A DNA stretch of 64,000 nt, taken from assembly GCA_963701075.1 (NCBI GenBank), contig OY969559.1, positions 1,120,001 through 1,184,000 on the forward strand, read 5' to 3'. Numbering within the stretch: the first letter of the stretch is position 1; each line of letters opens with the position of its first letter. The notes beneath the pieces are model-generated. The model did not search any database and had not been told where the DNA came from. It was given only the letters and a program-made list of their open reading frames with translations. The position numbers were made by a program, and so were the translations under genes. The DNA comes from an uncultured Nitrososphaerota archaeon. Its GTDB lineage: Archaea > Thermoproteota > Nitrososphaeria > Nitrososphaerales > Nitrosopumilaceae. Positions 1,611 to 25,263 of the stretch are shown piece after piece.

Positions 1611-1675
1611 TGCTCATATGTGTAATTATTAGGCTATTAAAGAATAGACCGCATTCTCAACTTTGGTTTCAACTC

Positions 1676-1693
1676 ATTATCATGTATGATAAT
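1676..1693. promoter_or_regulatory. Island regulon palindrome ATTATCA-tgta-TGATAAT
   Basis: Perfect palindrome ending 41 bp before ATG 1734, just upstream of a TATA-like box. Confidence 0.75.
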
Positions 1694-1733
1694 TTTGTCG
1701 GTATATTTTATACTAAATTTAGTAACATGCTAT

Positions 1734-2183
1734 ATGATTACAGCACGAGACATAATGTCAAAAAGAGTAATTACGATAGAATCCGATGTACCTGCATCCG
1801 ACATTGCTAAACTCATGGATAAAAATAAGGTCAGCAGCATAATTGTTACAAAGGATAACGCGCCTTACGGAATAATCTCTGAAAGAGACATGTTGTCCAA
1901 AGTTGTGGCTCAGAACAAGAGACCGTCAGAGATCAAAACAACAGAACTCATGTCATCACCACTTGTAGTTGTATCCCCCCTTACACCCGCTGAAGAAGTG
2001 GCAGAAAAGATGATCCTAAACAAACTCCGACGCATCGTGGTATCCGATGGCAAGCAAGCACTTGGGATAATAACCGTAACAGATTTCGTAAAACACCTTC
2101 ATGCAATGCTGTCTTCCTCAGAAGATTATAACAAGGATCTATACAAAGACATGATAGAAGACTGGGAATACTGGGTTTCGTAA
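1734..2183 (+). CDS. CBS-domain pair protein
   Basis: ARDIMSKRVITI...GIISERDM...GIITVTDF; start moved to ATG 1734. Confidence 0.9.
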   Translation: MITARDIMSKRVITIESDVPASDIAKLMDKNKVSSIIVTKDNAPYGIISERDMLSKVVAQNKRPSEIKTTELMSSPLVVVSPLTPAEEVAEKMILNKLRRIVVSDGKQALGIITVTDFVKHLHAMLSSSEDYNKDLYKDMIEDWEYWVS

Positions 2184-2255
2184 ACCCATGAGTAACGAGT
2201 TTATCTCAAGTCCATATCATGATAAAAAATTTCATTTGTTTTGTTAAATCTCACA

Positions 2256-3122
2256 TTATTGTAATGAGTTTTCAGACGCTATTGTTTTTACAATATCAGT
2301 CTTAGTTATGATGCCAACAAGTAACGAATTTTTTACAACTGGTAGACCGCTGATTCCGTTACGTATCATAAGGAGTGACGCTTCAGATACGTCTTCTGTG
2401 ACTTTAACTGTAACTGGATTTGGTGTCATTATGTCTGCTGCTATAAACGAGGCAAGATAATTCAATTGGTTTAATTTGAATTCTGATGGTTTTGCAGCCA
2501 TTCTGTATTTTTCTACTTCTTTTGGATCTCCCGCCTGTCTTAGCCATAGTGGAATCTTTGCAGGTATGAAATCGCGGTGTGTTATAATCCCAACAGGCTT
2601 TCGATTCCTTTCTACTACTACCCTAGATAACCTGTTTTTTACTAGAACGTTTTCAACATACAAAAGTGAATCGGCGGGTTTGACTGTAATCACATGTCTT
2701 GTCATTATCTTCGATACTTGAAGAGACGATGTAGCCTGTGTAAGAAATACTGATGTCAAATCGGTTTTTGTTATTATTCCTGCCATCTTGCCATCTTTTT
2801 TCAAAACAATAACTGAGCTTATCTTATTGTCTACCATTAGACGCGCGCAATCCTGTATTGTAGAATCTTCAGATGCGATTACAAGGTGCTTTATCATTAT
2901 CTCTGATACATGCGTTTTCTCAATTGGCTTATTGCCTAGATAGATCGATTTTATCAGATCTTTCTCAGTCACTATGCCTAACGGCTTCTCATTTTCAGAT
3001 ACTATAATTCTACTTATTCTGTATCGTAATAACATCGATCTTAGATCAAGAAGAGTTGTCTTTTGAGGTACGGTTATTGCCTTTTTTATTACCTGATTCA
3101 GATCGTAGTTTTTTAGTTTCAA
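2256..3122 (-). CDS. Four-CBS-domain protein
   Basis: Repeated GIVTEKD/GIITKTD/GIITHRD motifs. Confidence 0.9.
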   Translation of the reverse strand: MKLKNYDLNQVIKKAITVPQKTTLLDLRSMLLRYRISRIIVSENEKPLGIVTEKDLIKSIYLGNKPIEKTHVSEIMIKHLVIASEDSTIQDCARLMVDNKISSVIVLKKDGKMAGIITKTDLTSVFLTQATSSLQVSKIMTRHVITVKPADSLLYVENVLVKNRLSRVVVERNRKPVGIITHRDFIPAKIPLWLRQAGDPKEVEKYRMAAKPSEFKLNQLNYLASFIAADIMTPNPVTVKVTEDVSEASLLMIRNGISGLPVVKNSLLVGIITKTDIVKTIASENSLQ

Positions 3123-3203
3123 TGACTATTCTCTCATACGATTGCATAAGAAAGACTATTTCAAATTTCAAAGATGATAATCACTATCTCTTAACCTTGA
3201 CAG

Positions 3204-3851
3204 TTATTTTGAGTTGGACTTGTAGCCATAGCTGCCCAGAATTGCCATTACCTGATAATCCTCTACTTGTTCAAATACATTGTAAAATTCGCCAACAGCA
3301 CTGAAAAATACTGGGACATCTAGAACTACAACTTCGGCTATCTTCGATAGTCTCTCAATAGTATCTCTTGGTCCTATCGGTATTGCTACAATTACTCTTT
3401 TAGGATGCTGCTTTTTGACCCATTCTACTGCTGCAAACATTGTTGCTCCTGTGGCAATGCCGTCATCAACTAGTACTACAGTTTTGCCTTTCAAGTCGTA
3501 TTCCGTGTTTCCCCTAAATTTCATTACTCGGCGTTCTATCTCTTTTAGTTCTGATCTGATCTCCTTCTTGATATACTCACTTGGAACATTTAATGCCGCT
3601 ATGATATCGGCATTTGGAAAGAAACTTCCATCATGCATTACCGCCCCTATTGCAAGCTCAGGGTTGTATGGGGCACCTATCTTCCTTGATATGATTATGT
3701 CTAGTTTTGTGCCAAGTTTTTTCGCTATGACATCTCCTGTTACTACACCCCCGCGAGGTATGGCAAGTATCACAGGATTTTCGTTTCTTAAATTCTCTAG
3801 TTTCTTTGCAAGTTTTTGAGCAGCGTCTACTCTGTCTTTGAATAGTATCAT
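3204..3851 (-). CDS. Phosphoribosyltransferase family protein (Rv0571c/Rv2030c-like N-domain)
   Basis: FKDRVDAA, AIPRGG, RKIGAPYNPELAIGA, VLVDDGIATGATM. Confidence 0.9.
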   Translation of the reverse strand: MILFKDRVDAAQKLAKKLENLRNENPVILAIPRGGVVTGDVIAKKLGTKLDIIISRKIGAPYNPELAIGAVMHDGSFFPNADIIAALNVPSEYIKKEIRSELKEIERRVMKFRGNTEYDLKGKTVVLVDDGIATGATMFAAVEWVKKQHPKRVIVAIPIGPRDTIERLSKIAEVVVLDVPVFFSAVGEFYNVFEQVEDYQVMAILGSYGYKSNSK

Positions 3852-4528
3852 GTTTCTTTCTCCAAATATTTCAAAAACCAACCAGATGCATAATGTGCAA
3901 CCTCTTCAAGCTTTCCTTTCTCTTCAAATAGATGTGTCGCCCCTGGAATTATTACTAACTTCTTCTCTGATTGGAGGGAAGACAGAGCTTTCTTGTTTAA
4001 TTCAATAACAGGTTCGTCGTAACCTCCAACAATTAGAAGAGTAGGACACTTTACATCCGCTAATCTTTGTCCTGCTAAATCTGGTCTCCCCCCGCGAGAT
4101 ACAACAGCTTTTACAACTTTGGGCCTATCTGCTGCAGCAACAAGGGCAGCTCCACCGCCAGTACTTGCTCCAAAATATCCAATCTTTAATCTATTTAGCT
4201 TGGAATTTTTTAATACCCAGTCTGTAGTGTTTACAAGTCTTTTTGCAAGCAATGTTATATCAAACCTAAGATTAGCTGTCTGAAGATCTAAAGTCTCTTC
4301 CTCAGTAGTGAGTAGGTCAAACAAAAGTGTAGCAATCCCATTTTTGTTGAGTTCTTGTGCAACAAAACGGTTTCTTGGGCTCAGTCTACTGCTTCCGCTT
4401 CCGTGTGCAAAAAGGACTAAACCGCTAGCACCTTTTGGAACAGAAATGTTTCCTTCCAGTGTTACCTGACCTATTTTTATGGAAACAGTATCATTATACT
4501 GCTTCTCACTTTTTTCGAATATCTCCAT
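3848..4528 (-). CDS. Dienelactone-hydrolase-like alpha/beta hydrolase
   Basis: FAHGSGSSRLSPRN, GYFGASTG, VSRGGRPDLA, GATHLFEE; 4-bp overlap with the PRTase gene. Confidence 0.9.
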   Translation of the reverse strand: MEIFEKSEKQYNDTVSIKIGQVTLEGNISVPKGASGLVLFAHGSGSSRLSPRNRFVAQELNKNGIATLLFDLLTTEEETLDLQTANLRFDITLLAKRLVNTTDWVLKNSKLNRLKIGYFGASTGGGAALVAAADRPKVVKAVVSRGGRPDLAGQRLADVKCPTLLIVGGYDEPVIELNKKALSSLQSEKKLVIIPGATHLFEEKGKLEEVAHYASGWFLKYLEKET

Positions 4529-4676
4529 ACCCTATCATCCCATCCAGGATCATCGAATGATCGTCGTCTCCCTTACAACAAACACACCCTAGTTTGAGGC
4601 ATTCTCTTGCAAGTCCATGATTGCAGCTTCTACAAGTACATACTGTATCTCGAGATATTTTGCTATGTTTTGTCAG
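4506..4676 (-). CDS. Unannotated 56-aa Cys-rich protein (probable CTG start)
   Basis: Manual translation ...DTVCTCRSCNHGLARECLKLGCVCCKGDDDHSMILDG...; TATA box and regulon palindrome upstream. Confidence 0.55.
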   Translation of the reverse strand: MTKHSKISRDTVCTCRSCNHGLARECLKLGCVCCKGDDDHSMILDGMIGYGDIRKK

Positions 4677-4720
4677 CGTGCAATCAAGACAGTTTATAAA
4701 TTATTTTAATTGAAAAGTTG

Positions 4721-4781
4721 ATTATCAACAATGATAATTGTTAGATTTACAATCCAGGACCTAATTATCAACAATGAGATT
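4721..4781. promoter_or_regulatory. Two regulon palindromes serving divergent promoters
   Basis: ATTATCA-acaa-TGATAAT (4721-4738) and ATTATCA-acaa-TGAGATT (4764-4781, 42 bp before ATG 4823). Confidence 0.75.
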
Positions 4782-4822
4782 CATGGGATAACTTAATTGT
4801 GTTTTTTCATTAAATACAATTA

Positions 4823-5278
4823 ATGGCAAACAATTCCTATGCGAACATACTTGTTCCTTATGATGGCTCTAAATTCTCTCAAAAAGCGCTGGATGTAGCA
4901 AAAACATTTGCAAAGCGTTTTGACTCTACCCTTCATATTGCAACTGTTGTAGACCTAAGTGACGTCGCTTCTCCAGGCATGATACGTTCAAAGGGAATAA
5001 AGACAATCGAACAGATAAGAACTTCAATTAAACAATCTGCAAAGACCATCATTTTGCAAAAGGAAAATGAATGCACTACTGAAAAAATTAAAACAAAGGG
5101 GTGGATTCTTGAAGGTCCGACCACTAGTGAATTATTAAAATTAATCAAGGAAAACCGCACAGATCTAGTCATAATTGGAAGTAGGGGGCTCTCGGGATTC
5201 TCAAAAATGATGGCATTAGGCAGTGTTAGCAGAAAGATATCAGAGTTATCTGATTGTCCAGTAATGATTATACACTAA
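4823..5278 (+). CDS. Universal stress protein
   Basis: ILVPYDGS...VIIGSRG...LGSVSRKI...CPVMIIH. Confidence 0.93.
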   Translation: MANNSYANILVPYDGSKFSQKALDVAKTFAKRFDSTLHIATVVDLSDVASPGMIRSKGIKTIEQIRTSIKQSAKTIILQKENECTTEKIKTKGWILEGPTTSELLKLIKENRTDLVIIGSRGLSGFSKMMALGSVSRKISELSDCPVMIIH

Positions 5279-5296
5279 ACCGGACTTGAAGATTAT

Positions 5297-5755: not shown

Positions 5756-5782
5756 TGCTTCTATGAAATTACGATCTGAGAG

Positions 5783-7117
5783 TTGTGGAATAATTTGGCC
5801 ACATTAAAAAGAAATGTAGGTGTTTTTGGCGCAGCCTCCATAGGAATCGCAAACATCATAGGTGCTGGCATCTTTGTTCTAAGCGGTGTTGCAGCAGGTC
5901 TTGCTGGTCCCTCTGCAATACTTTCTTTTTTGATTGCAGGATTTGTAGCACTTCTTGCTGCATTCTCATCTTCAGAGTTATCCTCTTTTATTACAGCGAC
6001 GGGTGCTTCATATTCGTATACGAAAAGGGCATTTGGAAGATTCTGGAGCTTTCTTGTAGGCTGGTTTTTATATTTTGATCAAATAGTAGGTGCTGCGGCA
6101 GTCTCTGTTGGGTTTGCAGCATATTTTTCCGTGTTGTTTGGCCTGCAGGGCACAACCACAATAATCTTGACAGCGCTAGGAATGCCCCTTGTAATGCTTG
6201 TCCTCAACTTGATTGGAATACGACAAGTCAGCGGCATAGCTTCTGCGATGGTTCTCATCAAGATCTTTGCTATTGTGCTGATCATTTTCCTTGGGATATT
6301 TTTTATAACAAACCACTTTGATCCAAGGCATTACACGCCATTTTTCGCAAACGGCCTTGGTGGAACTTTCAATGGGGCAGCAATAATCTTCTTTGCATTT
6401 GCTGGATTCAATACTGTTTCCATGCTTTCAGAAGAAGTCAAAAGTCCTGAAAAAACCATCCCAAAGGCATTGATGATTGCATTTACAGTTACTTTTGTCC
6501 TTTATGTAGGAATAGCATTTGTTGAGATTGGTGTTTTAGACTGGCACAAATTGGGCTCGGTGGCTTCTCCATTGAGTACTTTGGCTTCTGCCCTTTCAGA
6601 TAATCAGGTGATACTTGATTTTGTTTCATTTTCTGCTCTGATTGCTACAGGATCCGTAGCATTAAGTTCCATAACTGCAGGGGCACGAGGAAGTTTTGCA
6701 ATGAGTAGAGACAATCTTTTTCCAAGATTTTTTACTCGCATACACAAAAAATTTGGAACGCCGTATCTTTCAATAATAATATGTGGAATTGCAATATCTG
6801 TACTTGCTGGCGTCTTTTCTAATAATATAGGCATAATTGCCTCAATTTTTAATTTTGGGACACTCTTCACTTATCTCTTCATCCATCTCTCTGTGATTAA
6901 ATTGAGAAGAAAAGAGCCGGGAACTGCCAGGCCCTTCAAAGTTCCACTGTATCCCGCATTTCCTATAATGGGAGCTTCAAGTTGCATAGCCCTGATGTAC
7001 TATCTGAGTAATACTGCAAAGATAGCATCTTTTATCTGGCTTTTGATAGGATTGTTTCTCTATGCCCTCTTGATTAAGAAGATAAAATTCTCAAACAGCC
7101 TTCATTCTTCCAAATGA
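5783..7117 (+). CDS. APC-family amino acid permease
   Basis: IIGAGIF, FFAFAGF...SEEVKSP, RPFKVP; about 12 TM helices. Confidence 0.92.
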   Translation: MWNNLATLKRNVGVFGAASIGIANIIGAGIFVLSGVAAGLAGPSAILSFLIAGFVALLAAFSSSELSSFITATGASYSYTKRAFGRFWSFLVGWFLYFDQIVGAAAVSVGFAAYFSVLFGLQGTTTIILTALGMPLVMLVLNLIGIRQVSGIASAMVLIKIFAIVLIIFLGIFFITNHFDPRHYTPFFANGLGGTFNGAAIIFFAFAGFNTVSMLSEEVKSPEKTIPKALMIAFTVTFVLYVGIAFVEIGVLDWHKLGSVASPLSTLASALSDNQVILDFVSFSALIATGSVALSSITAGARGSFAMSRDNLFPRFFTRIHKKFGTPYLSIIICGIAISVLAGVFSNNIGIIASIFNFGTLFTYLFIHLSVIKLRRKEPGTARPFKVPLYPAFPIMGASSCIALMYYLSNTAKIASFIWLLIGLFLYALLIKKIKFSNSLHSSK

Positions 7118-7865
7118 GTAGGCCCCTATGGCACCAAGAGATATGGCATAAACTAGTACAATCGCAATATCAAATACAAAAGATTTACTGCCTACGCCCA
7201 GCACTGCAATTCTCATCGCATCAACTGCGTATGTAGCAGGATCAATAGAGGTTATGAACATCAACCATTGAGGTAGCTTGTCAAGTGGAAAGAGTGCCCC
7301 ACTTAAGAAAAATAATGGAAATACAACAAAGCTTGCTATCAGCTGGAAGCCTTCCAAGCTTTGCATGTCAGCTTCCTATGGCAAGACCAAGAGACGTTAA
7401 TGTAAAAGAGAGGAGTAATACAATAACAATCACCTCAATCATTCCTAGTGGGGAATACGTGATTCCAATTAATACTCCAATTGACAAGAGTATTGCAGCT
7501 TGGATGAGAGAGCTTGTCATGCCGCCAAGCGCCTTGCCAACAAAAATAGTTCCCCTGCTAACTGGAGCCACCATGACACTTTTTAGAAAATCAAATTTCC
7601 TGTCCCATATTACATAGGAGCCAAAAAATATGGAAGTAAAGATAATTGACATGCATATTATTCCAGGAAAGATGAATTTTTGATATCCCATAGAGCTTCC
7701 AGCAGGTAAGATTGCGACTGAGCCAAATCCTATGCCTATTACAAAGAGCCATAATAGTGGTGTAAATGTGGAAGCAACAAGTCTGCTTCTCTCCCGTAAG
7801 AATACCTTGAACTCTCGTAGCCATAGGGCATACAACTTTTCAAATACCGCAATCTTATTTTCCAT
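7091..7865 (-). CDS. ABC-2 type (DrrB-like) permease, split by one extra base at 7369 (probable sequencing artefact)
   Basis: Removing C7369 gives ...LAIGSYMQSLEGFQ...FFLSGALFP in a single 257-aa frame. Confidence 0.85.
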
Positions 7866-8808
7866 ACTGAGCATATCTTTCCATGTAGCCTCCTTCTACA
7901 CTCTCTTTGAGATTTTTTGAGGCAAGTTTTAGGAATACGTCATTTAGGTCTGGCGTTCTAAACTCGACATATTCTGCCTCTAAATGTCGTAAAATATCAG
8001 GTATGTTGGCTCGTGCATTATCAACATACATGATTATCTCTCCGTTGACGAATTCAATTTTTCTAATGTAAATTAGTTTTTTAAGATTTTCTAAATCTGG
8101 ATAAAATTTTGGCTTGATCTTAACGATATCACCTCCTATCAATTTTTTTAGGTTTACAGGAGTATCGAGTGCTATTATCTTTCCTTGATCTATGATGCCT
8201 ATCCTGTCACATAGATGATCTGCCTCTTCCATGTAGTGAGTCGTAAGGATAAACGTCATATCCTCTTCTTTGACAAGCTTTTGAACATACTTCCACATCA
8301 TCTCCCTACTGCTTGGGTCAAGGCCAAGCGTTGGCTCGTCAAGAAACATCATCTTTGGTTTGTGCAAGAGACCGCGAGCTATCTCAAGACGTCTTCTCAT
8401 GCCGCCAGAGTATTTCTTGACCTCATCGTTCTGTCTGTCTGCAAGCCCGACAAGCTCTAACACAGACTGTATTCTCTTTTCCCTCTCGTATGCTGGAACA
8501 CTATAAAGAAATGCATGTATCTTCAGATTTTCATAACCTGTTAGCATATCGTCGCTGCTGGGGGCCTGAAATACGATTCCTATGGATGATCGTACTTTTC
8601 CTGGTTCAGTAATTATGTCATAACCGTTTACGATGGCAGTTCCTGATGTTGGTTTTAGCAAGGTTGCCAACATGTGGATGACCGTGGTCTTGCCTGCACC
8701 GTTTGGACCCAATAGTCCAAAGACCTCGCCCTTGTTTATCTCAAGATTTATGTTATCTACTACCGTGAGATTCTCGTACCTTTTTGTTAGGTTGCGTATC
8801 TTAATCAA
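7855..8808 (-). CDS. ABC transporter ATP-binding protein (DrrA-like)
   Basis: GPNGAGKT, YSGGMRRR, FLDEPTLGLDP; TTG start at 8808 lies 42 bp from palindrome 8850-8867. Confidence 0.93.
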   Translation of the reverse strand: MIKIRNLTKRYENLTVVDNINLEINKGEVFGLLGPNGAGKTTVIHMLATLLKPTSGTAIVNGYDIITEPGKVRSSIGIVFQAPSSDDMLTGYENLKIHAFLYSVPAYEREKRIQSVLELVGLADRQNDEVKKYSGGMRRRLEIARGLLHKPKMMFLDEPTLGLDPSSREMMWKYVQKLVKEEDMTFILTTHYMEEADHLCDRIGIIDQGKIIALDTPVNLKKLIGGDIVKIKPKFYPDLENLKKLIYIRKIEFVNGEIIMYVDNARANIPDILRHLEAEYVEFRTPDLNDVFLKLASKNLKESVEGGYMERYAQYGK

Positions 8809-8896
8809 ATGACATTGTTGATACACAGAGTAATATATCTAGAAGCATGCTTATCAGAAGTGAAAATGATCTCTATTACAAAAAATAGATTGTGGG

Positions 8897-9448: not shown

Positions 9449-9487
9449 ATTCTCATCTGTGATAACTATGTTATCAAAAATGAGTTT
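9449..9487. promoter_or_regulatory. Two regulon palindromes between divergent hsp20 and phaC
   Basis: ATTCTCA-tctg-TGATAAC (9449-9466; 40 bp from hsp20 start) and GTTATCA-aaaa-TGAGTTT (9470-9487; 41 bp from phaC start). Confidence 0.65.
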
Positions 9488-11041: not shown

Positions 11042-11042
11042 T

Positions 11043-11228: not shown

Positions 11229-11246
11229 ATTATCAAAATTGAGATT
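11229..11246. promoter_or_regulatory. Regulon palindrome shared by divergent promoters
   Basis: ATTATCA-aaat-TGAGATT; 40 bp from ATG 11189 (-) and 43 bp from ATG 11289 (+). Confidence 0.7.
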
Positions 11247-11915: not shown

Positions 11916-11995
11916 TCTCAAAAATTACGTAGAATTTTTGTTACCAGTAATGATAATCTGGTTTTGAATTTAATACCGTTGCGAACTTATTTTTG

Positions 11996-12778
11996 ATGGT
12001 ATTGAAAACCATTGAGTCCAAAGTTGCAGATTACATGAGTCCAGGTCCTCTAACAATTCAACAAAGTGACAGTTTGATAAACGCCATTGATCTAATGGCC
12101 GATAAAGGAATAGGAAACCTCATAGTAAAAAACAAACATGCGATAGGCATTCTTACAGAAAGAGAGATTCTTGAACATCTAGTATCTAAAAAAAAGATTG
12201 GTGGTGCCAAAATATCTGATATTTCCTTGAGTGCATTTGCCATAGTGAGTCCAGAAACTAGTGTAATAGATGCTGCAAGGGTGATGATGAGAAAAAAGAC
12301 ACGGCTGCTAGTGTATGAAGACAAAAAATTGGTTGGAATCATTACTGCAACCGATATGGTTCGAGCTTTCAGACGCACTCGTAGTAATCCTAAACTTGGG
12401 AAAGTGGTTAGCAATGATCTCTATATGGTGAAAGATGCCGATGATATCTTCAAAGCTGTAAAAATGATGTATGATAAAAAAATTGGAAGTGTCATAGTTA
12501 CAAAGCACAATATTCCATATGGGATTTTTACCGAGAGGGACCTTCTAGTTAATGTCCTATCCTATGATGCAGATTTGAGAAATCCAGTGGTTGGTTACTG
12601 TTCATATCCACTTGTTACGACAGAACTTGGAATAGGAGGAAGTGATGCAGCGATGATAATGGCTAAAAATAAAATAAAGAGATTAGTTTTAACAAAAAAT
12701 GATAAGGTAACATCTATTGTAACTGCAAGAGATATTGTAGATGCATTTCAGTCTAGCTTCTCAGATGAGAATCTTTGA
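11996..12778 (+). CDS. Four-CBS-domain protein
   Basis: GILTERE, GIITATD, GIFTERD, IVTARD. Confidence 0.9.
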   Translation: MVLKTIESKVADYMSPGPLTIQQSDSLINAIDLMADKGIGNLIVKNKHAIGILTEREILEHLVSKKKIGGAKISDISLSAFAIVSPETSVIDAARVMMRKKTRLLVYEDKKLVGIITATDMVRAFRRTRSNPKLGKVVSNDLYMVKDADDIFKAVKMMYDKKIGSVIVTKHNIPYGIFTERDLLVNVLSYDADLRNPVVGYCSYPLVTTELGIGGSDAAMIMAKNKIKRLVLTKNDKVTSIVTARDIVDAFQSSFSDENL

Positions 12779-14005: not shown

Positions 14006-14782
14006 TCAAGTCGTCTCCATCTGATATGCATCTACGATATCTCTTGCGGTAACGATTCCAACAAGTGCGCCATTATCTGTCAATCCCAGTCTTTTAATGT
14101 TTTTAGATGCCATGATACTTGCAGCCTCGTTTGCCAAAATTCCACTCTTGGCTGTAACAAGTGGAAATGTGGAATAAGGTCCTACCTTGCTTTCCAAGTC
14201 AACTCCTTTTGCAAGGGTTCTTACAAGATCTCGCTGTGTAAATATTCCATATGACGAATTCCTTTCTACAAGTATGGCGCCAATGTGTTTTTCGTCGAGA
14301 AGCTTTGCGGCATCTAATATAGTAGTGTCATATGGACAGTGGTAGACCTTTGTGCTGATGACCTTGTCCAAGCTTGGGGCTTTGTCTGTTTCTCTAAATG
14401 CCCTGAGCATATCTGATGCCGTGATGGTTCCAACAAGTTTGTCCCCATCGGCAAATACGAGTACCCTTGACTTTTTGGATATCATTAATCTTGCAGCCTC
14501 CACGACTGTGGTATCTGGTGTGACAGAAACGAACGGCTTGATGAAAACTTCCTTTACCCTTTGGTCCATGCTCTTTTCTCCCGATACGACATGCCTAAGG
14601 ATCTCTCTTTCTGTTAATATGCCGCGAGGCATTGTACTTTTTTCATCCATCACAATTAATGTGGCAAAACCTTCGTCTGCCATAAAGTTAATCACAGTAT
14701 TGAAAGGAACATCAGATTTAACTGAGATTGGATACTCTGACATGTAATTGCCAACAAGAAGATCTTTTACGTTTAATCCCAT
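14006..14782 (-). CDS. Four-CBS-domain protein (paralog of 11996-12778)
   Basis: GILTERE, GTITASD, GIFTQRD, GIVTARD. Confidence 0.9.
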   Translation of the reverse strand: MGLNVKDLLVGNYMSEYPISVKSDVPFNTVINFMADEGFATLIVMDEKSTMPRGILTEREILRHVVSGEKSMDQRVKEVFIKPFVSVTPDTTVVEAARLMISKKSRVLVFADGDKLVGTITASDMLRAFRETDKAPSLDKVISTKVYHCPYDTTILDAAKLLDEKHIGAILVERNSSYGIFTQRDLVRTLAKGVDLESKVGPYSTFPLVTAKSGILANEAASIMASKNIKRLGLTDNGALVGIVTARDIVDAYQMETT

Positions 14783-15067
14783 GAATGTACTTTCCTCAGC
14801 TGGGTATATTTGATTTGAGTATTCTGATATCAGAGATGATAACTACCTGAGTCATTTTTATACTAAAAATACTGCATACATCTCAGATCTGATAATCTAA
14901 AACTGAGAGCCGAAGACATGTAACTTCTAACCCTTCTCTGTTAGTTGAGGTTTTATGGTCCAATTTCTTTTTGGAGTTATAGGGACACCAACAGCTTGGC
15001 AATATCTTTTCACGCCTGATAATCGGGGATCTAACTAATATCTTTACAAATACGATATTGATACTAG

Positions 15068-15463: not shown

Positions 15464-15654
15464 CCTCGTGCTAAAACGTAGCATGAAAAATTATAATTTC
15501 TAGTATCTCATGCCAAAAAACATTCTATGGATCTTCTAGTTATAGGCTAGTAAGTGATGATTGAATTTTAATTTTGATAATCAATAGGCACCTTCAATAC
15601 CAGATTTGATATTCAACAATTGCCTTTAATAAAATCAAACATCCATTGTCTGCT

Positions 15655-17584: not shown

Positions 17585-17639
17585 TTTGTCATCTTTGAGA
17601 ATCATATTTAGACAGTCATGAATTATCAAGCGTGATAAT
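17585..17639. promoter_or_regulatory. Two regulon palindromes
   Basis: TTTGTCA-tctt-TGAGAAT (17585-17602) and ATTATCA-agcg-TGATAAT (17622-17639, 42 bp before ATG 17681). Confidence 0.7.
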
Positions 17640-18001: not shown

Positions 18002-18005
18002 GATC

Positions 18006-18045
18006 AAACTAGAGGTTGAAACGCTCTAGTTTTCTCCATTTTTTG
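18006..18045 (+). terminator. Hairpin plus T-tract downstream of 17681-18001
   Basis: AAACTAGAG/CTCTAGTTT 9-bp stem followed by T-rich sequence. Confidence 0.45.
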
Positions 18046-18145
18046 TAATTTATGGTTTTTTTAGGTAGGTTACAACAAATTCAATTATTCTCAATAATGA
18101 AAATCAAAGTAAAACTTCTTAAACAAACTTTCTAGATATAACATA

Positions 18146-18568
18146 ATGCAGAAAATTAAGAAGATACTTGTTGCATTAGATGGCTCAGTGCAATCCTTCA
18201 AATCTCTTCAAGAAGCAATTTACCTTGCAAGACAATGCGGTGCAACTATCACCGGATTATGTGTTCTGCCACTATATACAATAAGCCTCGGAAAGTTTAC
18301 AACATCTCTTAGAAATCAAAGCATAAAAGAAGCCAAGAAATTCATGGCAAAAGCAAAGGTGTTCGCGGCACAGAATGGAGTTGTATTTACCGAGAGGATT
18401 GTTATAAGCGATCACACCTCCAAGATTTCAGAATATGCAAGTGACAAAAAGTTCGATCTAATAGTAATGGGATCGCGAGGCATGAACCCCGTCAAAGAAT
18501 TGTTTCTAGGTAGCGTTGCAAACTATACTGTCCATAAATCTAAGATCCCAGTTCTAGTTGTAAAATGA
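18146..18568 (+). CDS. Universal stress protein
   Basis: ILVALDGS...IVMGSRG...FLGSVANY; palindrome 18087-18104 is 42 bp upstream. Confidence 0.93.
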   Translation: MQKIKKILVALDGSVQSFKSLQEAIYLARQCGATITGLCVLPLYTISLGKFTTSLRNQSIKEAKKFMAKAKVFAAQNGVVFTERIVISDHTSKISEYASDKKFDLIVMGSRGMNPVKELFLGSVANYTVHKSKIPVLVVK

Positions 18569-18653
18569 GCATTTGACTAGTAATTGAGCTTTTAATTACC
18601 ACTATTGGTAATTAAATTTCATCTTTTTAAGCATCTAACTTGTAAGTAATACA

Positions 18654-19091
18654 ATGGATGAGTACTTTGCAAGAGATATAATGAAAGAACAGGTAGTCAC
18701 GGTTGATTTTGCGGCCACTGTAATGGATGCTGCTAAGAAGATGGATGAAAAAAACATTGGATGCGTAATTGTAATGGAGAAGGAAATGCCGATAGGCATA
18801 CTAACCGAGAGAGATTTTGTAAAAAAGATAGCAGTTAATGAAAAACCCATGTCAACTCCTGTAAGAAATGTAATGTCTTCGCCTTTGATCTCAATAGATC
18901 CTGATGCTACAGTCTGGGAGTTGGCTGAGCTCATGAAACTTAAACGAATTCATAAGGTGCCCGTGGTGCAAGAAAACAAACTGCTTGGAATTGTAACTAC
19001 TGCTGATATTACTAGTCTATGTAGCATAGGCTCTGATTCAGAGATGAGAAAAGTCTGCCAACAAATTCTTTTACGATTGCATCAATCCTAG
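18654..19091 (+). CDS. CBS-domain pair protein
   Basis: ARDIM, GILTERDF, GIVTTAD; variant palindrome ATTACCA-ctat-TGGTAAT at 18595-18612. Confidence 0.92.
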   Translation: MDEYFARDIMKEQVVTVDFAATVMDAAKKMDEKNIGCVIVMEKEMPIGILTERDFVKKIAVNEKPMSTPVRNVMSSPLISIDPDATVWELAELMKLKRIHKVPVVQENKLLGIVTTADITSLCSIGSDSEMRKVCQQILLRLHQS

Positions 19092-19126
19092 GCATTTGAG
19101 AAAAACTGTTCTATTATTGATACAGG

Positions 19127-19999
19127 TTATTTTTCATTATGACTCCAATTATATTCCGTAAGATTTTCCGAATCAAGACTCTTTATGACATCCCAAGGCG
19201 TCAGGACTCCTTCTTCATGTAGAAGATATGGAGATTGCATTTCGTATAGTATCTTGCTTGCTTCTTCAAGTAAAATCTTACCAGAAACCTCTTTTGCCTT
19301 GTCTAATCTGAATTCACTACATTTCATTTCAAGAAAATTATCTACATCATGTAAGCAATTCAGATCTTGTGATATTTTTTGAATAATTATTCTGTCGCTT
19401 ATGAACTGCGAAGTTCCTTCTAAGATCAGCTTGCGGGTTCTGTTTTCGAACATTGCTGAGATGACTTCTTTTACTGTTTGATCTTTTCTAAAAGTAAAGA
19501 TTTTCTTCTTTGAGATATCTTTTATCTCCATTTTTGTCTTGCATAGCATTCCTATCTCAAGCAACTTTCTTGCAGATATTGCAGAGTAACTGCGATACTG
19601 ATTTGGCATTATGGCAAATGCTCTGTTTGTCTTCATCCATTGCTTTAGAAGTTCGCCTAATGTTGCATCCTTATCCACTATGACCAGATTTTTGTGCATG
19701 ATCTCTTTGATTCTGGTCTTTTCAAAAAAGCCAGCATTTGGACTACGCAATACTCCTTCTAGGATGCCAGCTCCTCCCACCAGTCCTACTGGCTTGTTGT
19801 CTTGTACAACTATCAACGAGTCTGTAAAAGTCTCCAAGTTGTGAGAAAGGAGGTTAGTTGCTTCTGCTACTGGATCGTTCGTTCTTACACTGACCACTGG
19901 CGAAGACAGGAGAGAATCTGGCAATAGATCGAGCATAACATGCTGTGAAATTGGTGTCTTTTCCGGGTTTGAATGAGAGTGATTAGTAGGTCTTTTCAC
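19127..19999 (-). CDS. Divergent CBS-domain protein
   Basis: KPVGLVG, KEIMHKNLVIV, GVLTPWDV; palindrome 20041-20058 is 42 bp upstream. Confidence 0.72.
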   Translation of the reverse strand: MKRPTNHSHSNPEKTPISQHVMLDLLPDSLLSSPVVSVRTNDPVAEATNLLSHNLETFTDSLIVVQDNKPVGLVGGAGILEGVLRSPNAGFFEKTRIKEIMHKNLVIVDKDATLGELLKQWMKTNRAFAIMPNQYRSYSAISARKLLEIGMLCKTKMEIKDISKKKIFTFRKDQTVKEVISAMFENRTRKLILEGTSQFISDRIIIQKISQDLNCLHDVDNFLEMKCSEFRLDKAKEVSGKILLEEASKILYEMQSPYLLHEEGVLTPWDVIKSLDSENLTEYNWSHNEK

Positions 20000-20069
20000 T
20001 AACTAATCTTTTGAAAAGTGGTATATTTAGACACAAGATAATTATCAGGAGTGATTTTTGTCATGTACG

Positions 20070-21101
20070 CTATGGTATTAGAATGGCTCTTCCCTGGATC
20101 TTTCCAGCTTCCAAGTTTTCAATGGCTTTGCCTACATCATCTAGTTTGAATGGATTGACAACAGTCTTGAGCTTGTTTGCACGAGCCAGGCTAATTACTT
20201 CAGTGAGTTCATTGTAATTTCCCCAAAGAGAGCCGATTACGCTGTACTCGTTTATGACTGACTCTACTATAGGTATGTTAAATGAGTTGCCCATTAATCC
20301 AACTAGAACTAGCGCTCCCCTCTTTTTCAGGCATGCTATGCCAAGATCCAGTGTATCTTTTGATGCCACTATATCTAAAACAACATCCACGCCGTGATTT
20401 CCAGTTATCTTGTTAAGAGATGATATGACGTCCTCGTTTTGGGAATTGATGACATAGTCTGAACCCATCTCTCTTGCAAGTTTAGTCTTGGCCTCACTTC
20501 GTTCCACGGTAATTACATTTGTTGGAGATAATAGTTTTAGATATTGTATAGCATAACTGCCAAGACCCCCAGCTCCGAACAATAGTGTAAAGCTATTGGG
20601 ATTTAGCATGTGACGAACCCTCTTTACTGCCCTGTATGGTGTGAGTCCTGCATCAGTCAAGGGGGCAACATATTTTGGATCCAAGCCAGGTGCCTTTACA
20701 AGAAAACGATATGATGGAATGTACATGTATTCTGCGTATCCTCCGTCGGATTGTGAGAGTCCTGGCCATGTAGGCAAGTTACAAAGTTGCTCGTCGCCTC
20801 CTTTGCAAAATTGACAGACTCCGCATCCCCAACCGCCAAATACTGCTACTACATCCCCTTTTGCAAGTCCACGCACAGACTCGCCAACTTCCTCGACATA
20901 GCCAGCCGTCTCATGGCCTATTGTCACAGGAAGCTTTACTGGAATTGTTTTCTGCCACTCTCCATGAATGAAATGAATATCGCTATGACATATTCCAGCC
21001 GCCCCTACCCGTATCACAACACTCTCTCCTTTTGGTTTTGGAAGATCTACTTCGTCTAGTTGTAATGGTTCTCCATAATTGTGTAGTCTTGCGGCCTTCA
21101 A
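20070..21101 (-). CDS. Zn-dependent NAD(P) alcohol dehydrogenase (MDR family)
   Basis: GICHSD, GHETAG, CGVCQFC...C, GAGGLG. Confidence 0.93.
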   Translation of the reverse strand: MKAARLHNYGEPLQLDEVDLPKPKGESVVIRVGAAGICHSDIHFIHGEWQKTIPVKLPVTIGHETAGYVEEVGESVRGLAKGDVVAVFGGWGCGVCQFCKGGDEQLCNLPTWPGLSQSDGGYAEYMYIPSYRFLVKAPGLDPKYVAPLTDAGLTPYRAVKRVRHMLNPNSFTLLFGAGGLGSYAIQYLKLLSPTNVITVERSEAKTKLAREMGSDYVINSQNEDVISSLNKITGNHGVDVVLDIVASKDTLDLGIACLKKRGALVLVGLMGNSFNIPIVESVINEYSVIGSLWGNYNELTEVISLARANKLKTVVNPFKLDDVGKAIENLEAGKIQGRAILIP

Positions 21102-21206
21102 AGTATATCTACAAATATGATCAATCCTGCTGTATTAAATTCAGAACTACATTATCATTTGTGAAAATAAGCAATCTCATCTGCCGACTTTGGCTGGCAA
21201 GATGAT

Positions 21207-21677
21207 CTAATGCACTATCATTACTGCGCAAGGTGCAAGCTCTGAAACTTTTCTGCTCACGCTGCCCAAGACCTTTAGTTTATTCAAACCGCGTAACCCT
21301 TGGCTTCCTATTACTATGAGATCAATTTTTTTTCCTCTGGCATACTTTAGGATCATCTCAACTGGTTTTCCTGAAATTATATCATAGATTGCGTCGACAC
21401 CCTGTGATTTGCATATTGCTACTTCTGCAAGAACTTCTCTTCTGGCTTGGGTCTTTGCAGCTGCCATGAATTCAGATATTGATTCTTCAAGTCTCTTGTC
21501 CTTTTTTAACAAGCCAAGCAGCATTCCTGGAGGAAAATCTTCGGGATCAACTACTATGATAACGTGGATCTTAGAACCTAGCCTTTTAGCTATTTTTATT
21601 GCATGAGCAAGGGCTTTTCTTGCAAATTTTGAACCATCCGTTGGAACCAGTATTTTTTCAAATTTTGCCTCTGACAT
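21207..21677 (-). CDS. Universal stress protein
   Basis: ILVPTDGS...IVIGSQG...LGSVSRKV; start ATG 21677; palindrome 21719-21736. Confidence 0.92.
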   Translation of the reverse strand: MSEAKFEKILVPTDGSKFARKALAHAIKIAKRLGSKIHVIIVVDPEDFPPGMLLGLLKKDKRLEESISEFMAAAKTQARREVLAEVAICKSQGVDAIYDIISGKPVEMILKYARGKKIDLIVIGSQGLRGLNKLKVLGSVSRKVSELAPCAVMIVH

Positions 21678-22165
21678 TAATGCATTTGACCTATCACGAT
21701 ACTTAAAACCCATTCTTAAATTTCAGTATTGATATTAGAAAAATACCTCTTTCTTCCACTAAGGAAAAAGGTGCCGTGACTAGCGGTATGATGTAGTTCT
21801 GATTTGTCTGTAAGAATGCCGCATTGGCGGCATTCGATTTGTCTCCTCTGAATATTGTCAGAATCACATCTTATACAAATGGGATATACTTTCTTGAGTT
21901 TTGTATTCTATGGAAATTAAAAAGTTCAGTTCTATGACTTGATACTATTTTCTAATCAGTAGAAGATTAACTGTAATAGGATTTAACCAGTATGTATGCA
22001 TTGAATGGCACTGCAAACACTTTATCACAGATGGCATTTTACATGCATAAATTTTAAGATTGTATTTTTATTCAAATTCGAAAAAACCGACTCGATCAAA
22101 TTTATCATTCTCAAAGATGATAATGGTGTTTTCGTTTTAAATAATATTTTACAGATAAGAATAAC

Positions 22166-22498
22166 ATGTCACAAAATGTAGAGACGCAGTACGATGGTTT
22201 CTTGGATCAGATTACCAGCAAACTCGGAAAGATTGATCTCAAGTTGGCAACTGATGTGATGTATTATGAGAGAAAATTTACTGATGTAGAACCCAAAGTT
22301 GAACTAGATGTACACTATAGAAACGGAACCAACATGGACAAGAAAAAATATGAACTAGAAGCAAGTTACATGGTTGCCCGAGAGGGAGAAAACGGCATTC
22401 GAGCAGTTGGTTTGGCATCGTTGGCTGACATACTTAAACTAGCAAAAGATCCTGACATTGAAAAGATTGATGGATTTGCTACCTGTGCGTCTTACTAG
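22166..22498 (+). CDS. Hypothetical protein
   Basis: 110-aa ORF; palindrome ATTCTCA-aaga-TGATAAT (22107-22124) is 42 bp upstream. Confidence 0.75.
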   Translation: MSQNVETQYDGFLDQITSKLGKIDLKLATDVMYYERKFTDVEPKVELDVHYRNGTNMDKKKYELEASYMVAREGENGIRAVGLASLADILKLAKDPDIEKIDGFATCASY

Positions 22499-22518
22499 GC
22501 GCACATCTAAAATATTTT

Positions 22519-23097
22519 TTAGTAATCATGTTCGCTAAAATCCGATCCTAGGGCACTACTAACTATGGCCGTATTTGGGGTGGTACGTGATTTAACTGCA
22601 AGGTTTGGCATGAATTGATGGAAGATTTCTTTTAAAATCATCTCTGTAAAAAGAGACCATTTGATGCCAAGATTGTGTTGTACTATAAAATGATGAACCT
22701 CACCTTCTATTCTGTGATCTGATGTCATACCGGATGCCCTCATGTAATCCTCAAAAGCCTCGATTGCACGCTTCAGATCATAACTTCCCTTCATGAACAT
22801 TACCCAGTCCTTCACCAGAGGAACCATGACATTGATTATCTTGTTCATGGACTCTCCTTCCATCTCTTCGCCTAATGTCTTCAAGACATCCCTTGGAACG
22901 GGTATCATTCCAATATTTTCTGCAAACCTATCCCAGTTGACATATTTTTCTAAAATCTGCTTTACAAGTACATTTTGAGAGATTTTTCTCTGCATTGCCT
23001 CTGTTTCTAGCTCTTCTACTACGTGTACCGGTAGCCTATAGCTTATGCTTCTGGTATCCTCATGTTTTGTAGGATGGGGCTTTCTTGTAACGCTCAT
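22519..23097 (-). CDS. Putative ribbon-helix-helix transcription regulator with C-terminal ligand-type domain
   Basis: TRSISYRLPVHVVEELETEA...ISQNVLVKQILEKY fits the RHH pattern. Confidence 0.6.
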   Translation of the reverse strand: MSVTRKPHPTKHEDTRSISYRLPVHVVEELETEAMQRKISQNVLVKQILEKYVNWDRFAENIGMIPVPRDVLKTLGEEMEGESMNKIINVMVPLVKDWVMFMKGSYDLKRAIEAFEDYMRASGMTSDHRIEGEVHHFIVQHNLGIKWSLFTEMILKEIFHQFMPNLAVKSRTTPNTAIVSSALGSDFSEHDY

Positions 23098-23208
23098 CTA
23101 GATTCTATTGAACTATTTCTAACTTATATAACTAGTGAATATCTCTCAATTAGGCACACATCTTGATGTGTTTGCTACATCTGTACCGTTCCATCCTGTA
23201 GAATCTTT

Positions 23209-23718
23209 CTATTTTTTTATGTGATCTTTGTCTATGTGATTGCATACAGATTTTGTATCTTTGAATTGCTTTGAACAGTATGGACAATACGTTTTATCAG
23301 CTATCTCTAATTCTGGGAGTAGAAGATCATGTCTCTCAAGGTTCCCGCAGACCATTTTTTGTGTAATAAGACCAATTGGGCGTTTGTCCATCACTACCAA
23401 CCTACGTATATCGTGTTTTCTCATAATCTCTAATGCTTCTCTGACTAGAGATGTTTTTTGTATCGTTATCAAAGGACTCTTTGTGATCTGCTTCAATGTA
23501 GTTTTTGTTGGATCTAATCCTTTTGCTACTACATCATACAGGATATCTTTCTCAGTTACAATGCCTGTTATCTTGCTATTCTCAAATACCAGGATGCTAT
23601 CTATCTTAGACTCTGCCATGGCTTGGGCTGCATCTTGTATGGTAAGGTTACTCTCAACAGTAGTCATTTTGGGATTGGTGAATTTGGAAACTGGCTCGTT
23701 GAGAAGATCTAATGCCAT
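23209..23718 (-). CDS. CBS pair fused to a C-terminal C2H2 zinc finger
   Basis: GIVTEKD...; CPYCSKQFKDTKSVCNHIDKDH. Confidence 0.85.
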   Translation of the reverse strand: MALDLLNEPVSKFTNPKMTTVESNLTIQDAAQAMAESKIDSILVFENSKITGIVTEKDILYDVVAKGLDPTKTTLKQITKSPLITIQKTSLVREALEIMRKHDIRRLVVMDKRPIGLITQKMVCGNLERHDLLLPELEIADKTYCPYCSKQFKDTKSVCNHIDKDHIKK

Positions 23719-23892
23719 GTGATATGATGCTCCTGTATCTTGATTTAATTTTGGAGGTATTTATATGATTGATGACGAGAAACCTCTTTCTGTATGGGCT
23801 ACACGTTCAAGAATTGGACTTGTGTATGATTTGTATGCATTGCCGTGCAATGCGGTCCTACTGGTTATATCAAATATTATTGAATACGACAT

Positions 23893-24231
23893 ATGCAAGT
23901 ATTGCTACAAGGAAAACAGGTACAGGAAGAGACAACAAAAGATGTCTTGCTTGAGATCTTGGCAGACAAGTACTCTAGAACCATACTAGAATCCACAATA
24001 GATATGCCAAAATCAGCCATTGATATCACCCATGAGTGTGGCATACCAATCAGCACCGCTTATCGCAGAGTGCAAATGTTACACAGACACAAACTGCTTG
24101 GCATCTCTGGTTCAATCAGCCAAGATGGTAAAAAGTACTTTTTGTACAAATCCAAAGTCAAGTCAATCATGGCGTGTTTCAACAATGGTTCACTTGAAGT
24201 TGAGATTGTTCCTAATTCTGCATTAACTTAG
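23893..24231 (+). CDS. ArsR-like winged-helix transcription regulator
   Basis: ILADKYSRTIL...KSAIDITHECGIPISTAYRRVQML. Confidence 0.8.
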   Translation: MQVLLQGKQVQEETTKDVLLEILADKYSRTILESTIDMPKSAIDITHECGIPISTAYRRVQMLHRHKLLGISGSISQDGKKYFLYKSKVKSIMACFNNGSLEVEIVPNSALT

Positions 24232-24319
24232 AATTAGGAACTGCAAAAATTTTTCGAGATGAGAATCATGTATGAGAATAGAGCCGGCATTTTAAATGTG
24301 ATTAAAGTGGAGGTATGGT

Positions 24320-25180
24320 ATGATATCTAAGATACAGCAATTCACATCATCTGTTATAACATTACAACCCGAAGATACTATTAATGATGCATTATTTTTA
24401 ATGCAAAAAAACGATATAAAACGAATTGTTATTGTACAGAACAATTTTCCTATTGGAATAGTTACAGAGCGTGATATAGGAAGATTCTTGGAGTACGACA
24501 AGACAACAAAAGCACTTGACAAAATACCTGTTCAGAATATAATGAGTAGAAGCCTAGTTACAATATCTGCAGAAGATCATGATATTGCAATACAGTCAGC
24601 TATTAGAATGGATACATTTCAAATAAGCTCTGTTGTTGTAGTGGATAACGACGGAAATCTAGCTGGAATTATAACAAAGTCTGATTTGACAAGGATTTTT
24701 TCCAGTCTGTATAGCCGAGTCTACAAAGTTTCTGATTACATGTCAAAGAAGATAATCACCTGCCGCAAATCAGATTCGCTAACATTTGCTTTGGATATGT
24801 TAAACAAAAACAAGATCTCAAGATTGGTAGTTACTGATAACGAAGGAAAACCTATAGGTGTGATTACATATGATACGTTTCTAAGAAACAGCGGTTTTTT
24901 CAAGGCAAATAAAAGTACACGTAACTATCTTTTACCCAGTATCGATGCAAAGGAGATGAGGGTTGGAAATCTAATAAAAGATGAACTGCTTACAGTCACG
25001 ACCGAAGACGATTTGGCTATTGCTGCTAAATTAATGACAGATTTCAAGGTAAGTGGAATACCAGTCGTTGACCGTGAGGGATCTCTTGAGGGCGTCATAA
25101 GTTCTACCGATGTTGTAAATGCATACTCTGAGGTAGAGACACACTTTCGTTTGATAAAGAAAGATCCGCATTTTGATTAG
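24320..25180 (+). CDS. Four-CBS-domain protein
   Basis: GIVTERD, GIITKSD, GVITYD, GVISSTD. Confidence 0.9.
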   Translation: MISKIQQFTSSVITLQPEDTINDALFLMQKNDIKRIVIVQNNFPIGIVTERDIGRFLEYDKTTKALDKIPVQNIMSRSLVTISAEDHDIAIQSAIRMDTFQISSVVVVDNDGNLAGIITKSDLTRIFSSLYSRVYKVSDYMSKKIITCRKSDSLTFALDMLNKNKISRLVVTDNEGKPIGVITYDTFLRNSGFFKANKSTRNYLLPSIDAKEMRVGNLIKDELLTVTTEDDLAIAAKLMTDFKVSGIPVVDREGSLEGVISSTDVVNAYSEVETHFRLIKKDPHFD

Positions 25181-25263
25181 TAAAGTTATCGCAAAGAAGA
25201 TGTAATTCTTAGAACTGATAATCTGATCCCATCTTTTTAACTATGAAGTAACATAGATTTGTA

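Follow-up and report, generated by a model that had tools for sequence, protein, structure and literature searches.

A conserved palindromic operator and its candidate winged-helix activator in the archaeal order Nitrososphaerales

The island and its palindromes

The DNA analysed here is a window of 64,000 nucleotides (C1:1120001-1184000 in contig numbering) from an archaeal genome comprising one contig of 1.916 Mb with 38.6% GC. The subject of the analysis is an 18-bp palindrome with the consensus ATT(A/C)TCA-N4-TGA(T/G/A)AAT (box A), which recurs throughout a gene island at the left of the window. Judged by its sequence, the host is an ammonia-oxidising archaeon of the genus Nitrosotalea; the closest matches of a winged-helix (wHTH) protein encoded in the island belong to Nitrosotalea, including Ca. 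N. devanaterra and N. bavarica. The island part of the window (700-25700) encodes universal stress proteins (USPs), CBS-only proteins, Hsp20, an M50-CBS protein, a phosphoribosyltransferase (PRTase), an alpha/beta hydrolase, a PhaC-like protein, a cupredoxin, an alcohol dehydrogenase and transporters, and beyond it lie the core genes ppdK, tpi, sucCD, a valS-type synthetase gene, carAB, tfb, purD and cdc6. Open reading frames (ORFs) of at least 80 aa were called mechanically, giving 2146 calls genome-wide, a procedure that short or frameshifted genes escape. An Rfam scan of the window returned no matches, so the repeats represent no known RNA family.

All 24 copies of box A listed in a preliminary description of the window were present at their coordinates, and 20 of these have a start codon (ATG, GTG or TTG) at a distance of 38-45 nt, measured on one strand from the proximal edge, the four remaining sites being those at 21151, 4721, 14879 and 17585. 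The spacing of exactly 42 reported for 11 starts was correct in each case and corresponds to 41 intervening bases. The features of the window are as follows.

1653..1670, minus strand: weak box A, 42 nt ahead of a 68-aa ORF starting near 1610
1676..1693, plus strand: box A, 40 nt ahead of a CBS gene (ATG 1734)
3164..3181, minus strand: box A, 41 nt ahead of the 4-CBS gene 2256-3122
4721..4738, minus strand: box A with TATA at 11 nt, no nearby ORF
4764..4781, plus strand: box A, 41 nt ahead of the USP gene 4823-5278, then an amino-acid permease gene
8850..8867, minus strand: box A, 41 nt ahead of an ABC ATPase/permease operon (start 8808)
9449..9487, no strand assigned: two boxes A (9449 and 9470) serving divergent genes for Hsp20 (ATG 9409, gap 39) and a class III PhaC-like synthase (9528, gap 40)
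11229..11246, plus strand: box A, 42 nt ahead of a cupredoxin gene (ATG 11289)
11940..11957, plus strand: box A ahead of the 4-CBS gene 11993-12778
14826..14843, minus strand: box A, 43 nt ahead of the 4-CBS gene 14006-14782, then an M50 peptidase-CBS gene
14879..14896, no strand assigned: box A without a clear target
15006..15023, plus strand: box A, 44 nt ahead of a DUF6114 membrane-protein gene
15596..15613, plus strand: box A, 41 nt ahead of a USP gene (ATG 15655), then an MFS transporter gene
17585..17639, plus strand: weak box A at 17585 without a target, and strong box A at 17622, 41 nt ahead of a 106-aa secreted ORF (17681)
18087..18104, plus strand: box A, 41 nt ahead of the USP gene 18146-18568
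18595..18612, plus strand: box A of the form ATTACCA/TGGTAAT, 41 nt ahead of the CBS gene 18654-19091
20041..20058, minus strand: box A, 41 nt ahead of the CBS gene 19127-19999
21151..21168, minus strand: box A with TATA at 11 nt, 49 nt ahead of the Zn alcohol dehydrogenase gene 20070-21101
21719..21736, minus strand: box A, 41 nt ahead of a USP gene (ATG 21677)
22107..22124, plus strand: strong box A, 41 nt ahead of the 110-aa ORF 22166-22498
22519..23097, minus strand: ribbon-helix-helix (RHH) protein with an H-NOX/V4R/BcsD-like C-terminal fold, candidate upstream sensor and box B reader
23836..23854, plus strand: a second palindrome, box B (TGCATTGCCGTGCAATGCG), ending 10 nt ahead of the wHTH TATA
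23893..24231, plus strand: 112-aa ArsR/HTH_20-like winged-helix protein (wHTH), candidate box A activator, with an 82% identical paralogue at C1:1115786-1116127
24262..24279, plus strand: box A, 40 nt ahead of the 4-CBS gene 24320-25180
25205..25222, plus strand: box A, 41 nt ahead of a CBS gene (ATG 25264) that is frameshifted in this assembly
54521..54538, plus strand: box A outside the island, 42 nt ahead of a membrane-protein ORF (54581)

The orthologue of the 68-aa ORF in N. devanaterra (L193) has a site at a gap of 40, and the box at 4721..4738 is the probable leadered promoter of the hydrolase and PRTase pair 3204-4528. The product of the conserved 110-aa ORF, which has no known family and also adjoins the wHTH gene in genomes G044 and G059, is a possible feedback partner. 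Island genes without a box A of their own include the wHTH gene, the CBS-ZnF/RHH pair and the HTH-CBS gene. The box had not been noticed in front of core genes, and this is borne out within the window, where a site is found at one of the 41 ORFs in 26-64 kb (54581) versus 18 of the 33 island ORFs. Four genes of the window appear to be split by frameshifts, at 7091-7874 (ABC-2 permease), 25264-25693 (CBS), 41530-42626 (AAA ATPase) and 44085-47138 (carB), which are probably assembly indels.

Promoter geometry, extent and conservation of box A

A matrix trained on the island sites and scored only outside the island gave, at scores of at least 13, 19 site-to-ATG gaps of 39-44 nt versus 1.5 per other 6-nt bin. 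A cross-genus matrix, built from 20 sites of non-Nitrosotalea loci and having the same consensus as the seed, found 16 intergenic island sites versus a mean of 0.18 (maximum 2) in 300 dinucleotide shuffles. Matches to box A followed by a TATA numbered 42 with a spacer of 4 nt and 2-5 with spacers of 2, 3, 5 or 6 nt. Across 42 regulon promoters, the start of the TATA is found 11-12 nt past box A and 28-31 nt ahead of the ATG, on which basis the mRNAs are taken to be leaderless. The TFB recognition element (BRE) of these promoters is weak, with a purine fraction of 0.43 (n = 28) versus 0.55 in 110 other leaderless promoters (p = 0.0026), and AA at -5..-3 occurs in one of the 28 versus 35% of the 110. 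The TATA spacing and weak BRE bear out the geometry proposed earlier, that of an activator site just upstream of BRE/TATA. Box A is a real, strong and deeply conserved operator, and very probably works through activation.

The island starts at C1:1105926, approximately 14 kb to the left of the window, and spans at least 40 kb. Genome-wide, box A promoters (score at least 12 at a gap of 38-45) precede 42 of the 2146 ORF calls, comprising 18 in the window island, seven in the left extension and 17 elsewhere. The stretch of 925-948 kb contains a single box A promoter. The preliminary description had proposed one dimeric activator for the whole 25-kb island, of which a dimeric activator encoded in the island is still the best reading, whereas confinement of the regulon to the island is contradicted by the 17 promoters elsewhere. 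The left extension encodes more USPs, PPK2, a PNPOx-family protein, a cupredoxin, AMP phosphorylase, an R15P-isomerase-like protein and form III RuBisCO, as well as the second wHTH copy (82% identical), a PAC2-type chaperone and Hsp20. Box A promoters elsewhere include those of USPs, a Dps/ferritin-like gene, a nitroreductase, cupredoxins, DUF302 and a third wHTH paralogue. Among the USP genes of this genome 11 of 17 have box A, versus 59 of 2146 ORF calls overall.

The AMP phosphorylase, R15P-isomerase-like and form III RuBisCO genes form an operon (C1:1111299-1114963; L011:11299-14963). The AMP phosphorylase and RuBisCO are over the NCBIfam cut-off, and the RuBisCO keeps KDDE. Box A lies 41-45 nt ahead of this operon in five of five relatives (scores 9.6-15.0) and is weak here (8.6); one relative has an internal deletion. 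Form III RuBisCO matches were found in seven of 151 family genomes, all in the genus Nitrosotalea. Also in the left extension is a 388-aa CBS protein (L011:17112-18278), conserved in other islands and a box A target in G062, the C-terminus of which we take, by eye, to resemble a ribosome-hibernation (HPF-type) domain.

Conservation was assessed in 36 genus, 151 family and 121 order genomes. The 4-nt-spacer pattern exceeded its 6-nt control in 35 of the 36 genus genomes, overlapping matches being counted, and a match was present in 138 of the 151 family genomes. A stricter pattern was found in 66 of the 121 order genomes, most strongly in family f7 (G231, 23 versus 0 in the control). At 80 loci with wHTH orthologues, gaps of 39-44 numbered 213 versus 19 per bin (54 loci) and, in other genera, 49 versus 6.5 (26 loci). 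Islands of other family genera encode USP-MDH, CBS, Hsp20, TPR, PII, Cdc48, thermosome, PNPOx, Lrp/AsnC and TFB proteins.

In basal relatives, which do not resemble ammonia oxidisers, regions were chosen by pattern match and not by function, TATA spacing being a selection criterion; they yielded 58 site-ORF pairs, of which 26 were scanned against Pfam. Targets include cytochrome bd subunit I, two Mo-oxidoreductases, TatA, TatC and the small subunit of a NiFe-hydrogenase, together with an FAD oxidoreductase, POR, a ferredoxin subunit, radical-SAM and Bat-like HTH_10 genes. Five of the 26 had no family, and an aminotransferase, Nramp and glutamate dehydrogenase are not oxygen-specific. The gap between box A and the start codon spreads over 36-78 nt in these relatives, consistent with leadered mRNAs.

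The candidate activator and a possible second tier

The best candidate for the box A activator, judged by sequence, is the wHTH protein at 23893-24231, and we regard its binding to the box as quite probable. It is a stand-alone winged helix without a sensing domain, its clusters are archaeal and mostly Nitrososphaerota, and approximately 10 paralogues occur in this genome. The family has no Pfam model: when HTH_20 and HTH_5 were tested, the protein scored 15.6 bits versus an HTH_20 cut-off of 27. Its structure model (pLDDT 88.5) has the ArsR-like winged-helix fold of the ArsR/SmtB family, and the best Foldseek rows were Phr (2p4w, TM 0.69, E 1.9e-3), PH1932, NolR, SrnR and HlyU, none at E<=0.001. 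The invariant columns of a 19-row alignment are M1, P52, Y57, R58, G79 and S87, and this alignment contains no invariant Cys or His that could form a conserved sensing site.

Occurrence of the wHTH tracks that of the motif. The median number of pattern matches per genome is 13 in the 89 family genomes with an orthologue versus 3 in the 62 without, and genomes with the wHTH exceed those without in 10 of 11 mixed genera (within-genus permutation p = 5e-5, kin not being independent). Four distant genomes in which box A is present (G044, G059, G052 and G060) have exactly one family member each, near box A, and a fifth (G040) has two; because the alignment included these sequences, it is their number alone that carries information. 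Family members are also found on the same contigs as box A in G199, G231, G238 and G223. Two apparent exceptions were assembly artefacts, the gene being cut at contig ends in G009 and frameshifted in G093. A quick tree of the family (114 columns), from which approximately three quarters of the full-flank L142-221 island-clade rows had been thinned, was poorly resolved and was not used for orthology.

A further line of evidence comes from a wHTH paralogue in an operon with DUF7521 (C1:1694151). It lies in a cluster of small membrane, secreted and cupredoxin genes, the DUF7521-wHTH operon and an HTH_45 gene (C1:1690400-1697400; L013:4400-11400) that carries a variant box, CTACC-ATT(C/T)(C/T)C(A/G)T..A(C/T)G(A/G)GAAT-GGTAG, with the same core as box A. 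The pair of DUF7521-linked paralogue and variant box recurs in G025, G003, G011, G009 and G034, so paralogue and motif vary together. In N. devanaterra (L193) the DUF7521-wHTH operon adjoins the island wHTH. DUF7521-adjoining members have an extra C-terminal helix, absent from the island clade, which suggests an older, membrane-coupled control of the wHTH.

Three regulators had been put forward for the island. The wHTH tracks the motif as described; the HTH-CBS protein (25731-26285), the gene of which abuts ppdK and has no site, is present in five of five zero-match genomes and was rejected; and the RHH profile gave no match in any of the five distant box A genomes (G044, G059, G052, G060 and G040), while being positive in five of five other genomes. 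The zero-match genomes have 0-2 USP matches each. The universal paralogue at C1:1389949 is likewise disfavoured as box A binder, only distant family members being left in the five zero-match genomes.

Control by a single tier, as originally proposed, is probably incorrect, because the gene of the candidate activator carries a different palindrome, box B, and not box A. All 80 wHTH orthologues have box B (consensus TGCATTGCA-N-TGCAATGCA) in their upstream region; it ends 10 nt ahead of the TATA in 75, has only two strong copies in this genome and was not seen before the wHTH genes of genomes lacking the RHH protein. Co-inheritance, together with the tandem TGCA repeats, suggests the RHH protein as the reader of box B, an assignment to which we give slightly less than even weight; of the 96 family genomes with at least one of RHH and wHTH, 86 have both. 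The third-best box B match of the genome (window 21997-22015) is 91 nt upstream of box A 22107, with no obvious TATA or ORF.

The N-terminus of the RHH model is a ribbon-helix-helix (Z 7.2 to PutA52), and the C-terminal domain matches BcsD and VirS (VirS-N) at Z 6.9-7.2 and H-NOX at Z 6.0-6.3 (rmsd 3.5-3.9, 104-107 aligned). His141 is invariant in the RHH alignment and is only a lead for haem or ligand binding. In G074 the RHH gene is the last of a box A operon (wHTH-CBS-CBS-RHH), which would give positive feedback. Approximately 14 paralogues with an H-NOX/V4R-like domain occur here (e.g. C1 829857, 941317 and 1506432), in a family without a Pfam model. A paralogous RHH and wHTH pair (C1:849273-850199; L063:6273-7199) is situated inside a haem-related cluster (chlorite-dismutase family, NirDL/Ahb-like), its wHTH promoter having a TGCA-N6-TGCA palindrome further upstream. 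The idea that such a box generally precedes the wHTH paralogues was rejected for lack of a genome-wide positional excess, and is a lead only.

Signal, rival explanations and known systems

Taking the observed motif, spacing, weak BRE, conservation, target content and co-occurrence together, we consider it probable that box A serves as operator for a conserved low-oxygen (hypoxia/dormancy) regulon in the Nitrososphaerales, activated by a wHTH dimer. The dimer (23893-24231 and its near-identical paralogue) would bind box A upstream of the weak BRE and help TFB/TBP to load on the TATA, switching on approximately 40-60 mostly leaderless promoters. Lacking a sensing domain, the wHTH is probably controlled by its amount in the Nitrosopumilaceae. 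Its own promoter has box B in the same activator position, and this box may be read by the co-inherited RHH protein, which carries the H-NOX/V4R-like domain.

In promoter design the closest known system is TFB-RF1 (PF1088) of Pyrococcus furiosus, a TFB-recruiting activator whose palindromic site immediately precedes a weak BRE and TATA, the protected region being -47 to -70 from the start codon (PMC5937170). Box A shares the fixed spacing upstream of BRE/TATA and the weak BRE, but the TFB-RF1 site is TCTG-N5-CAGA with two known targets, whereas here a different 18-bp box has 40-60 targets order-wide. The DosR regulon of Mycobacterium tuberculosis comprises hypoxia-linked USPs, a CBS-pair protein, nitroreductases and a membrane zinc protease (PMC2442614). 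The island has a similar target set (USP, CBS, Hsp20, M50-CBS, PNPOx and PhaC, with a nitroreductase elsewhere in the genome), but uses an archaeal TBP/TFB promoter and an unrelated AT-rich operator. No DosR-type two-component regulator was found among the scanned island proteins; a receiver-domain-like ORF was recognised by eye at C1:1100669. FNR and FixLJ-FixK control microoxia regulons, and the basal targets cytochrome bd, Mo-oxidoreductases, hydrogenase and POR, together with a likely two-tier cascade from sensor to activator, are similar; unlike FNR, the wHTH is a stand-alone ArsR-like protein without a CRP/FNR sensor domain, and the half-sites of box A are in the opposite orientation to those of the FNR box. 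The winged-helix fold is that of Phr and the ArsR/SmtB family, from which the wHTH differs in its 13-20% identity, the absence of invariant Cys/His, the activator position of its site and, in this genome and at the g33 loci checked, a housekeeping Hsp20 promoter without the box. The system resembles TFB-RF1 in its promoter design and DosR/FNR in its output, but does not fit fully into any of them.

Although they depend on oxygen, ammonia-oxidising archaea flourish in oxygen-minimum zones, in sediments and aquifers and in wet soils. Our literature searches, in which coverage of subscription papers and bioRxiv supplements was limited, found no description of the box A motif or its regulator, and no operator or regulon for the oxygen response of these archaea. 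If the low-oxygen interpretation is correct, the regulon would provide an oxygen-stress marker for field transcriptomes and would give a role to the expanded USP/CBS families, the roles of which are called largely unknown (PMC12974425). The analysis yields a named operator and a list of its targets, together with candidates for the activator and the sensor, for work in cultured Nitrosotalea devanaterra or Nitrosopumilus. The low-oxygen interpretation would also mean that an old anaerobic-respiration regulon has been reused for dormancy in aerobes. A more far-reaching version, which we offer only tentatively, is an order-wide archaeal counterpart of FNR/DosR assembled from components unrelated to theirs, which would be the first oxygen-sensing regulon defined in ammonia-oxidising archaea. 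Here a wHTH that in the ancestor activated genes of anaerobic and microaerobic respiration, coupled at first to a small membrane partner, DUF7521, would have been retained and rewired in ammonia oxidisers so that the RHH protein, as an H-NOX-like gas sensor, acts through box B on the wHTH and thereby on box A, driving a dormancy programme that in Nitrosotalea includes AMP salvage by form III RuBisCO.

Low oxygen is the likely main signal, favoured over heat or energy stress because of the target content in basal lineages. In sponge Thaumarchaeota under seasonal hypoxia, UspA, HSP20, CBS, LDH/MDH, TPR, PII, Lrp/AsnC and transcription regulators are up, with amo unchanged (bioRxiv 10.1101/2023.02.27.530229), and these gene types match the box A islands of other family genera. 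Ammonia starvation, suggested earlier as a signal, is disfavoured by data on N. maritimus SCM1, in which three uspA transcripts were reported as unregulated by ammonia starvation or copper (PMC12974425). The UspA and CBS proteins of SCM1 were absent under H2O2 (PMC12974425); in N. brevis, an Hsp20 is up under ammonia limitation (bioRxiv 10.1101/175141). That the same operator and activator respond instead to heat or to general energy or proteotoxic stress is unlikely, though it has several points in its favour. CBS and USP proteins bind adenylates, the wHTH fold resembles Phr, a Pyrococcus heat-shock regulator, and thermosome, Cdc48 or Hsp20 genes carry box A in G107, G027 and G056. In SCM1, UspA and CBS proteins rise at 32 C, which the authors read as heat stress (PMC12974425), but growth at that temperature may also lower O2. 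Further, housekeeping Hsp20(-Cdc48) promoters are without box A at seven of seven g33 loci checked and in this genome, though the box is present at this promoter in G027, G056 and G107, and cytochrome bd, hydrogenase, Mo-oxidoreductase and Tat targets are not heat-shock genes.

The identity of the activator allows other explanations. It is improbable that the RHH protein (22519-23097) is itself the activator at box A and a direct gas or ligand sensor, with the wHTH only autoregulating through box B. Its co-inheritance with the motif is as good as that of the wHTH, its modelled fold would be plausible for a sensor, and G009 has RHH and 29 matches; yet G009 does have the wHTH, in truncated form, the profile is absent from the distant box A genomes, the variant box tracks a wHTH paralogue, and box B targets are essentially only wHTH genes, which would leave the wHTH without a job. 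Decidedly improbable is a reading of box A by another protein, which could be a universal factor, an activator made of CBS domains only, as HhpR is, or a special TFB paralogue with an extended promoter element as its target. In Pyrococcus yayanosii, transcription is activated by a protein with four CBS domains (PMC11705074), the G074 island includes a TFB gene and residual matches occur in genomes without the wHTH clade. However, the HhpR site is described as non-palindromic and AT-rich (PMC11705074), the HTH-CBS protein and distant wHTH paralogues persist in all five zero-match genomes, and a two-fold symmetric site would fit a dimer better than monomeric TFB. Very remote is the prospect of box A as the operator of a repressor from which stress gives relief. 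Most solved ArsR-like neighbours of the wHTH in the Foldseek list are repressors, which counts in its favour, but the site is wholly upstream of BRE/TATA at fixed spacing and with a weak BRE, as for TFB-RF1 (PMC5937170).

Several observations weigh against the low-oxygen, wHTH-based interpretation preferred here. The family data cannot separate RHH from wHTH because the two are co-inherited, and an RHH-looking ORF beside the G060 wHTH (L040:2555-3148, by eye) was missed by the profile. The H-NOX resemblance is weak at Z 6.0-6.3. Only five of 30 USP loci in g33 genomes score at least 12, kin genomes are not independent and AT content inflates pattern counts. In one mixed genus a genome without the wHTH had more matches, the orthologue cut-off of E<=1e-29 was picked after the results were visible, and G052 is only 77% complete. 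G034, G011 and G003 are without the island wHTH clade, yet have pattern matches above the control, which may be due to the DUF7521-linked paralogue. The sponge match is one of gene type, and one sponge symbiont had no differential expression between anoxia and normoxia in the reported data (bioRxiv 10.1101/2023.02.27.530229).

Two minor observations concern other promoters. A transposase-like pair lies between two divergent USP promoters at L017:5159-5994 (C1:1443159-1443994) and L012:17214-18049, both promoters keeping their own box A, and another transposase-like copy follows the wHTH paralogue at C1:490365. The housekeeping Hsp20 promoters (L269, L272-L275 and C1:378480-378640) share a different element around or after the TATA, TAATGTCA...TTACATA, which is a candidate heat-shock operator.

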